Below, piece after piece: positions 63,462 to 64,000 of a DNA stretch of 64,000 nt. How positions within the stretch are numbered: position 1 is the stretch's first letter; the number at the start of each line of letters is the position of its first letter. The stretch lies in assembly GCF_988242995.1 (NCBI RefSeq), contig NZ_OZ547043.1; one strand, 5' to 3'. A program made the translations under genes and the position numbers. The notes under the pieces are model-generated. The model did not search any database. It was not told the origin of the DNA and worked only from the letters and a program-made list of their open reading frames with translations.

Positions 63462-64000
63462 TCAGAACGACCAGACCACACCCGCCTGAGTATTCCACGG
63501 TGATTCTACCCCTGCGCCATTGCCATAACTGACTGACAAATGACCGCTTAACGTCGGGGTAAACGATGACCTTATCCCAGCCTGATAAACGCCACGGGTT
63601 CCAGCCACATCATTATTAAATTTGCCATCGTCATTAACTTTCACCTGGTTAGAATCGGCGTATTCCTGACGCACGGCGGCTTTCAGCCAGGGTTCCAGCG
63701 TCGTACCGTTTTGCAGGTCCATGTGATAGCTTACCGCCGTTCCCGCTTCAGCGCGTAATATCCGGGTATTTCCCACATCCGCGCGCATGCCGTTTGATAA
63801 CGTGTAGTCCTGACCATCTGTGGTAAAGCCGGTAAAGGCCAGATAGGGTCTAACACTCCACAATCCGTCAACCCAACGGAACCCGCTCTCAACATGAGCA
63901 CCCGCGCCGTTACTATTGTAATCGCCAAACGCTGTTGCCCCATTACTCATCTTGCCATGGATGGTGTTGGCAAAACGGTCAACTTTCACCACCCCATCAA
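63462..64000 (-). CDS. yejO: autotransporter outer-membrane beta-barrel domain, 3' part only (gene continues beyond window)
   Basis: C-terminus …GHLSVSYGNGAGVESPWNTQAGVVWSF ends in an aromatic residue typical of autotransporter barrels; a yejO-type autotransporter is expected next to proL; symbol is by position only. Confidence 0.55.
   Translation of the reverse strand, partial: DGVVKVDRFANTIHGKMSNGATAFGDYNSNGAGAHVESGFRWVDGLWSVRPYLAFTGFTTDGQDYTLSNGMRADVGNTRILRAEAGTAVSYHMDLQNGTTLEPWLKAAVRQEYADSNQVKVNDDGKFNNDVAGTRGVYQAGIRSSFTPTLSGHLSVSYGNGAGVESPWNTQAGVVWSF

Follow-up and report, generated by a model that had tools for sequence, protein, structure and literature searches.

The 3' end of the autotransporter gene yejO beside a P4-like island at proL in Escherichia coli

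The right end of the window, by which we mean the whole 64,000-nt stretch of contig NZ_OZ547043.1 (assembly GCF_988242995.1) that was analysed, is the 3' end of yejO, which lies on the E. coli chromosome and encodes a classical (type Va) autotransporter of the AIDA-I type. In the lineage of the window this gene is very probably whole, encoding 863 aa. It is separated from proL by an integrative element of 8.9 kb, and comparison of loci with and without islands argues that this insertion has been neutral for its neighbour. The yejO tail itself is already known, ordinary biology: yejO is a long annotated but functionally uncharacterised autotransporter gene, and integration at tRNA-Pro (proL) has been documented before. 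The neighbouring island, with its head-morphogenesis gene of the P1/P7/D6 type (PmgG-like), is the more interesting lead. The features discussed below are collected in Table 1.

Table 1. Features of the proL–yejO region, in window coordinates
Feature	Position	Strand	Basis
proL, tRNA-Pro(GGG), integration target, attL side	54339-54415	+	ARAGORN; Rfam tRNA, 54.9 bits; K-12 annotation of proL beside yejO
Integrative element, 8.9 kb	54416-63347 (to 63360 with attR)	+	LH13-b annotation, Pfam on L007, PHROGs, Rfam, repeats
Integrase	54622-55866		
AlpA-like excisionase	56130-56321		
isrK-like RNA match	56725-56801	+	47 bits, just under the gathering score of 50
C4 antisense RNA (RF01695)	56826-56913	+	76 bits, E 7e-14
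Icd-like gene	56967-57155		
DUF927 primase	57647-59782		
ProQ/FinO-family gene, nonsense mutation	60480-61016		
DUF4222, SSB and PerC genes	within the 54416-63347 island		
PmgG-like gene, last gene of the island, 194 aa	62538-63122	+	phrog_1114, E 9e-60
attR remnant CTCTCGTGGACCA, 13 nt, right edge of the island	63348-63360	+	alignment with proL and K-12
proL–yejO spacer, chromosomal backbone, 101 nt, yejO 3' UTR	63361-63461	.	identical in island-free strain 7/2
Predicted bidirectional intrinsic-terminator hairpin (A-run, CCAACC, 5-nt loop, GGTTGG, T-run)	63370-63400	.	terminator scan, fold, sequence
Stem-loop with 15-bp stem, starting 10 nt past the yejO stop, no U-run after it	63419-63452	-	RNA fold
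yejO 3' end, codons 686-863 and TGA	63462-64000	-	translation, PF03797, TIGR01414, identity to 7/2 and L007

The yejO tail and the integrity of the gene

The minus strand has an open frame that enters at the window edge (64000) and is closed by TGA at 63462-63464; its 178 codons are free of stops and frameshifts. The translated fragment, which ends in ...NTQAGVVWSF* (fuller tail residues, SPWNTQAGVVWSF), matched PF03797 (Autotransporter beta-domain) with an E-value of 6.2e-24 and 85.6 bits, the score cut-off of this profile being 26 bits, over profile positions 84-254 of 255. It also matched NCBIfam TIGR01414 (E 7e-45, profile positions 254-432 of 432). An earlier note, made from the letters alone, had placed an autotransporter 3' end here, and the open frame and both profile matches bear this out with exact coordinates. 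Alignment to the BrkA barrel structure 3qq2 puts the translocator domain at approximately residues 582-863 of the 863-aa YejO. As the fragment corresponds to residues 686-863, or about 63% of that domain, the window does contain only the C-terminus of the beta-barrel, as had been claimed.

The earlier note had spoken of a yejO-type autotransporter, and genome comparisons agree. Of 5426 complete E. coli genomes, 5415 were matched by megablast with the end of the window; all the matches are chromosomal and fall under features annotated 'yejO: autotransporter YejO'; with full-length yejO as the query, matches were obtained in 5421 of the 5426. The gene order yejM(lapC)–proL–yejO–narP–ccmH is shared by K-12 MG1655, 7/2, LH13-b and ECCHD184, and in these four genomes, as well as in contig L007 described below, the gene lies between proL and narP and is convergent with proL, the arrangement that defines the YejO orthologue. 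Positions 63361-64000 of the window are 100% identical to strain 7/2, which has an intact yejO of 2592 nt, and the tail is identical to that of about 98 complete genomes without an island at proL. The closest of the 5426 complete RefSeq E. coli genomes reach 99.2% for window positions 1-25000 and 98.6% for 39001-64000.

The earlier note had suggested that the sequence upstream of 64000 be checked for a full-length passenger, IS insertions and frameshifts. Contig L007 (GCA_013851005.1, JACCGV010000036.1, 468 kb), which was found by an exact-protein look-up with the island's last gene, was used as a stand-in for this sequence; it runs 9.1 kb past the window's end. Over window positions 52538-64000 (11,463 nt) L007 has 0 mismatches and 0 gaps, and this identity takes in the diagnostic G>A nonsense mutation of the island ProQ/FinO gene. 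The yejO gene of L007 (10925-13516) is 2592 nt long, begins with ATG, has no internal stops and encodes 863 aa, with a full passenger and neither an IS element nor a frameshift. The encoded protein contains AIDA repeats, a pertactin domain and the autotransporter barrel (TIGR01414, E 2e-111, residues 456-863), and the passenger of the L007 and LH13-b alleles matched Pfam AIDA (E 2e-52) and Pertactin (E 3e-45). By eye and by hydropathy scan, the N-terminus of the L007 protein, MHQSGSVSLCRSAISVLVATALYSPIALA/STVEY, resembles a signal peptide, with R11, a core of hydrophobic residues (9-27) and ALA/S as an AxA site.

Compared with the 7/2 allele (WP_021523186.1), L007 yejO has 3 nt differences (99.9% identity). 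All three are non-synonymous (C329S, L382V and V568M) and fall in the passenger or linker; they are too few for a selection test. The 319-nt yejO–narP intergenic region of L007 is 1 nt different from that of 7/2 and 2 nt different from that of K-12, and a promoter scan of this region in L007 found no sigma-70 consensus promoter. Two contigs that are nearly identical to the window, L017 (1 mismatch) and L015 (3 mismatches), also have an 863-aa yejO, as do most of the contigs examined that carry the same ProQ nonsense variant. The assembly collection records the exact 863-aa protein in 148 blocks. From these data we conclude with considerable confidence that yejO is intact at 863 aa in the lineage of the window, a conclusion read from a stand-in that is identical over the overlap and not proven to be the same genome.

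This conclusion has to be weighed against the frequency with which yejO is lost elsewhere. We compared full-length yejO with all genomes and took 60 records at even steps down the ranking, a sample whose make-up follows the database, where K-12 derivatives, ST131 and O157 abound, rather than frequencies in nature. The gene was collinear over 2592 bp in 34 of the 60 and, as judged by alignment length and collinearity, apparently intact, and three more records had an in-frame 222-bp deletion and are still annotated as a gene. Disruption took several forms. Five records were interrupted by an IS element (IS3 in two; IS5, of the K-12 type, in three), and two were one base longer or shorter, the one that was checked being annotated as frameshifted. 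In three others the alignment ended 3 bases before the gene start, as would be seen with the ATG>ATT change of L005, L014 and L016; the one checked, L018 (NZ_AP024126.1), is an annotated pseudogene with an internal stop. The remaining 13 were remnants comprising 9-36% of the gene, of which the ST131 type is annotated as frameshifted, with an internal stop and a missing C-terminus. Thus, at least 23 of the 60 sampled complete E. coli genomes (38%) have a disrupted yejO, which substantiates the statement of the earlier note that the gene is often pseudogenised and puts a rough number on what had been folklore. Two of these cases are consistent with published accounts: K-12 yejO is inactivated by IS5K close to its start (PMC11005336; PMC11677980), the element splitting the gene at codon 22-23 in the K-12 annotation, and yejO was reported missing from ST131 (PMC5654935).

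Disrupted copies were also found beside the island. Of the ten places found by looking up the exact protein of the island's last gene, five have an intact yejO (L007-L011). Three have a pseudogene: in two the start codon is changed from ATG to ATT and a stop follows codon 789 (L005, L014), and in one the copy is divergent and frameshifted (L012). In the last two yejO is absent (L006, L013). Moreover, the window's own island variant, with the ProQ nonsense codon, is present beside a yejO pseudogene in L016, whose chromosomal backbone is different (68 mismatches to the window over 13.5 kb). The L016 pseudogene has the same ATT start and the same stop after codon 789 as those of L005 and L014; this recurrent pseudogene allele, with which L018 was grouped, was found both with and without an island at proL. 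In both L006 and L013 the sequence stops resembling the window at 63405, a short way beyond the terminator hairpin, and narP lies about 420 bp from the end of the island's last gene.

In view of these counts, yejO in the window's own genome might itself be a pseudogene, disrupted beyond 64000 by an IS element, a frameshift, loss of the start codon or a nonsense mutation, as is the copy beside the same island variant in L016. However, yejO is intact in the sole contig that matches the window over 11.5 kb without a mismatch, and the contigs with 1 and 3 mismatches also have the 863-aa gene. The pseudogene alleles of L005, L014 and L016 stop at codon 789/790, which is in the part of the gene that lies within the window, and the window has no stop there; its tail is identical to that of intact alleles. 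We consider a disrupted gene unlikely for these reasons. Since truncated remnants are common in the sample, with ST131 among them, we also considered that the fragment is a dead C-terminal remnant left behind by a deletion, and not part of a gene. The ST131-type remnant that was checked lacks, according to its annotation, the very part of the gene that is present in the window, and the other remnants of the 60-genome sample likewise have no yejO 3' part. Every base of the tail agrees with full-length alleles, and in L007, the contig identical to the window, the frame goes on into a complete gene; a dead remnant is therefore scarcely credible, and an intact yejO is the preferred reading.

The island boundary and the yejO 3' end

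The only tRNA gene detected in the window by ARAGORN is proL. At the right edge of the island, attR is a copy of the tRNA-Pro 3' end minus two C's of CTCTCGTGCCGACCA, and apart from this 2-base gap the right junction does not differ from strain 7/2. Chromosomal backbone begins at 63361 and the yejO stop codon lies 101 nt beyond attR, in keeping with the earlier description of the gene as ending immediately outside the island. The yejO tail is useful as a boundary marker, fixing the right island end at 63348-63360. The CC-less attR is also present in LH13-b and ECCHD184 (the L001, L002 set), and in L025 it is found beside a different island, the cargo of which includes a small terminase, AlpA, a Y1 transposase and a group II intron. 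Every island-bearing locus examined, the one with unrelated cargo included, has the form CTCTCGTG--GACCA. With this CC gap, the perfectly repeated att core is very short (8 + 5 nt). The CC-less attR thus appears to derive from the attachment site of this element group and not from damage.

Minus-strand RNA from 63340 to 63470 is predicted to fold into two strong hairpins (MFE -45.6 kcal/mol, z -6.3 relative to shuffles). In the one further from the gene, the terminator scan identified 13 pairs followed by a T-run, and an A8/T7 symmetry was read in the sequence. As an A-run on one side is matched by a T-run on the other, this hairpin could terminate transcription in both directions. For minus-strand transcription it is the predicted terminator of yejO; for plus-strand transcription it would serve proL in island-free genomes and stop read-through from the island here. 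In island-free genomes it lies between the convergent genes proL and yejO, and in the window it lies between yejO and the island's last gene. An Rfam search of 54000-64000 at a permissive threshold found only proL and the island RNAs, with nothing at or near the yejO tail. Relative to K-12, the first 3'-UTR hairpin has two substitutions, which we considered as a compensatory pair; they are not on one base pair and this possibility was rejected.

The earlier note had raised the question of whether the island affected the yejO terminator or expression of the gene. When the exact 863-aa YejO sequence was looked up, contigs of three kinds came back: L022 and L023 have this island, L025 has an unrelated one, and L024 has none, yejM being adjacent there. 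In all four the exact 101-nt spacer directly follows the yejO stop. Since the spacer with its hairpin is identical with and without the island, insertion did not alter the yejO 3' end. By these comparisons, the insertion left the yejO 3' UTR, the predicted terminator and the distant promoter unchanged.

Insertion into proL could nonetheless have altered yejO expression by changing its 3' end, through loss of the terminator, read-through or antisense transcription. The island has taken the place of proL as the convergent neighbour of yejO, and its last gene, encoding the PmgG-like protein on the plus strand, is transcribed towards yejO. On the other hand, the spacer and both hairpins are identical in island-free, this-island and other-island contigs that encode the same YejO; the symmetrical terminator stands between the island and the gene; and the terminator scan identified a further terminator-like site on the plus strand at 63238-63255. 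In addition, the yejO-inactivating lesions of island-bearing genomes are far from the junction. A changed 3' end is therefore very improbable. Were the island induced, transcription of the PmgG-like gene might read through the shared terminator into the yejO 3' end, which would amount to island-dependent antisense control of a surface adhesin. Such transcription would face two plus-strand terminator-like sites and a spacer unchanged by the insertion; nothing here supports read-through and we regard it as highly unlikely.

The point lesions seen in yejO (lost start, internal stop and frameshift) are all within the gene. A correlation between island presence and yejO decay was considered and rejected, as one island variant is found beside intact and pseudogene alleles alike; it is also countered by an intact allele that is shared by loci with islands and loci without. 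One and the same yejO allele, with an identical 101-nt spacer, is found without an island, with this island and with another one, so that insertion at proL is best read as neutral for the neighbouring gene.

Content of the island

The layout of the island, as annotated from sequence, is P4-like, with a predicted integrase, an AlpA-like excisionase, a C4-type RNA, an Icd-like gene, a DUF927 primase and iteron-like repeats. The isrK-like and C4 RNA matches upstream of the Icd-like gene resemble an RNA immunity module of the P1/P4 type. In the ProQ/FinO-family gene, the G>A change is at 60649 and converts Trp57 to a stop (TGG>TAG), leaving ORFs of 56 and 119 aa. The assembly collection has this nonsense variant on record in 56 blocks, and at least two chromosomal backbones carry it. 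Between 62096 and 62246 lies a segment that has no annotated gene and is a candidate for the island's origin of replication. It starts with three direct repeats of 21 nt (62096-62159), centred on ACTTGTCCCA; copies of GGGACAGGTGGGAC in inverted orientation face them at 62197-62225, and an AT-rich palindrome (62227-62246) comes next.

The PmgG-like protein is 72% identical to a phage D6 sequence and approximately 41% identical to pmgG of P1, P7, RCS47 and SJ46 (tblastn), and it had no match in Pfam or NCBIfam. The island contains no recognisable sid, delta, psu or capsid genes, and megablast of the whole island against 50,697 phage records gave no match. The presence of a P1-family morphogenesis gene in a small P4-like element hints that the element may be a satellite of P1/D6-like helper phages; our literature search on PmgG and satellites found no paper linking the two.

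YejO and related systems

By homology, YejO is a classical type Va autotransporter. In addition to the C-terminal barrel (PF03797, TIGR01414 and the 3qq2 alignment over 582-863), the protein has a C-terminal aromatic residue, ending in ...AGVVWSF. The terminal aromatic motif of outer-membrane proteins is recognised by BAM. The beta-helical passenger, which was examined in L007 and lies outside the window, was identified by its AIDA and Pertactin matches and by similarity to the solved passengers of Ag43 and TibA. By analogy with its family, YejO would be exported by Sec via an N-terminal signal peptide, after which BAM would use the ...VVWSF motif to put the C-terminal 12-stranded barrel into the outer membrane. 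The beta-helical passenger, made up of AIDA strand-loop-strand repeats and a pertactin-like domain, would then be displayed on the cell surface. Judged by homology, YejO probably acts in adhesion or aggregation; the literature searched yielded no paper on its function. We infer that yejO is expressed in the lineage of the window, although an intact frame may still be silent.

The E. coli yejO locus (b2190 in K-12; 7/2) and the one described here have the same proL–yejO–narP order, the same protein length of 863 aa and the same domain order. They differ in that the window has an island between proL and the gene, and K-12 yejO is split by IS5K whereas the L007 copy is unsplit. A comparable arrangement was described in Shigella flexneri 1c, in which the gtrIC prophage remnant is foreign DNA bounded by tRNA-Pro and yejO (PMC4924310). 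The two boundaries are the same as those found here but the inserted element differs, being in our case an 8.9-kb satellite-like element.

Among autotransporters of known structure, the YejO passenger matched Ag43 (7koh, E 4e-37), an AidA-I family adhesin (7ko9) and TibA (4q1q). With its AIDA-I-type relatives YejO shares Pfam AIDA, the TIGR04415 strand-loop-strand repeats and a classical C-terminal barrel. However, its NCBIfam equivalog scores are 133 bits for Ag43 and 77 bits for AIDA-I, both against a cut-off of 1200 bits. As these scores are far below the cut-offs, YejO is a distinct paralogue. The pertactin domain and barrel of YejO also align with Bordetella pertactin (1dab) and BrkA (3qq2), and Bordetella Vag8 (7akv) aligns over residues 384-862. 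These proteins are from another genus and have a different passenger N-terminus, and what they share with YejO is the architecture only.
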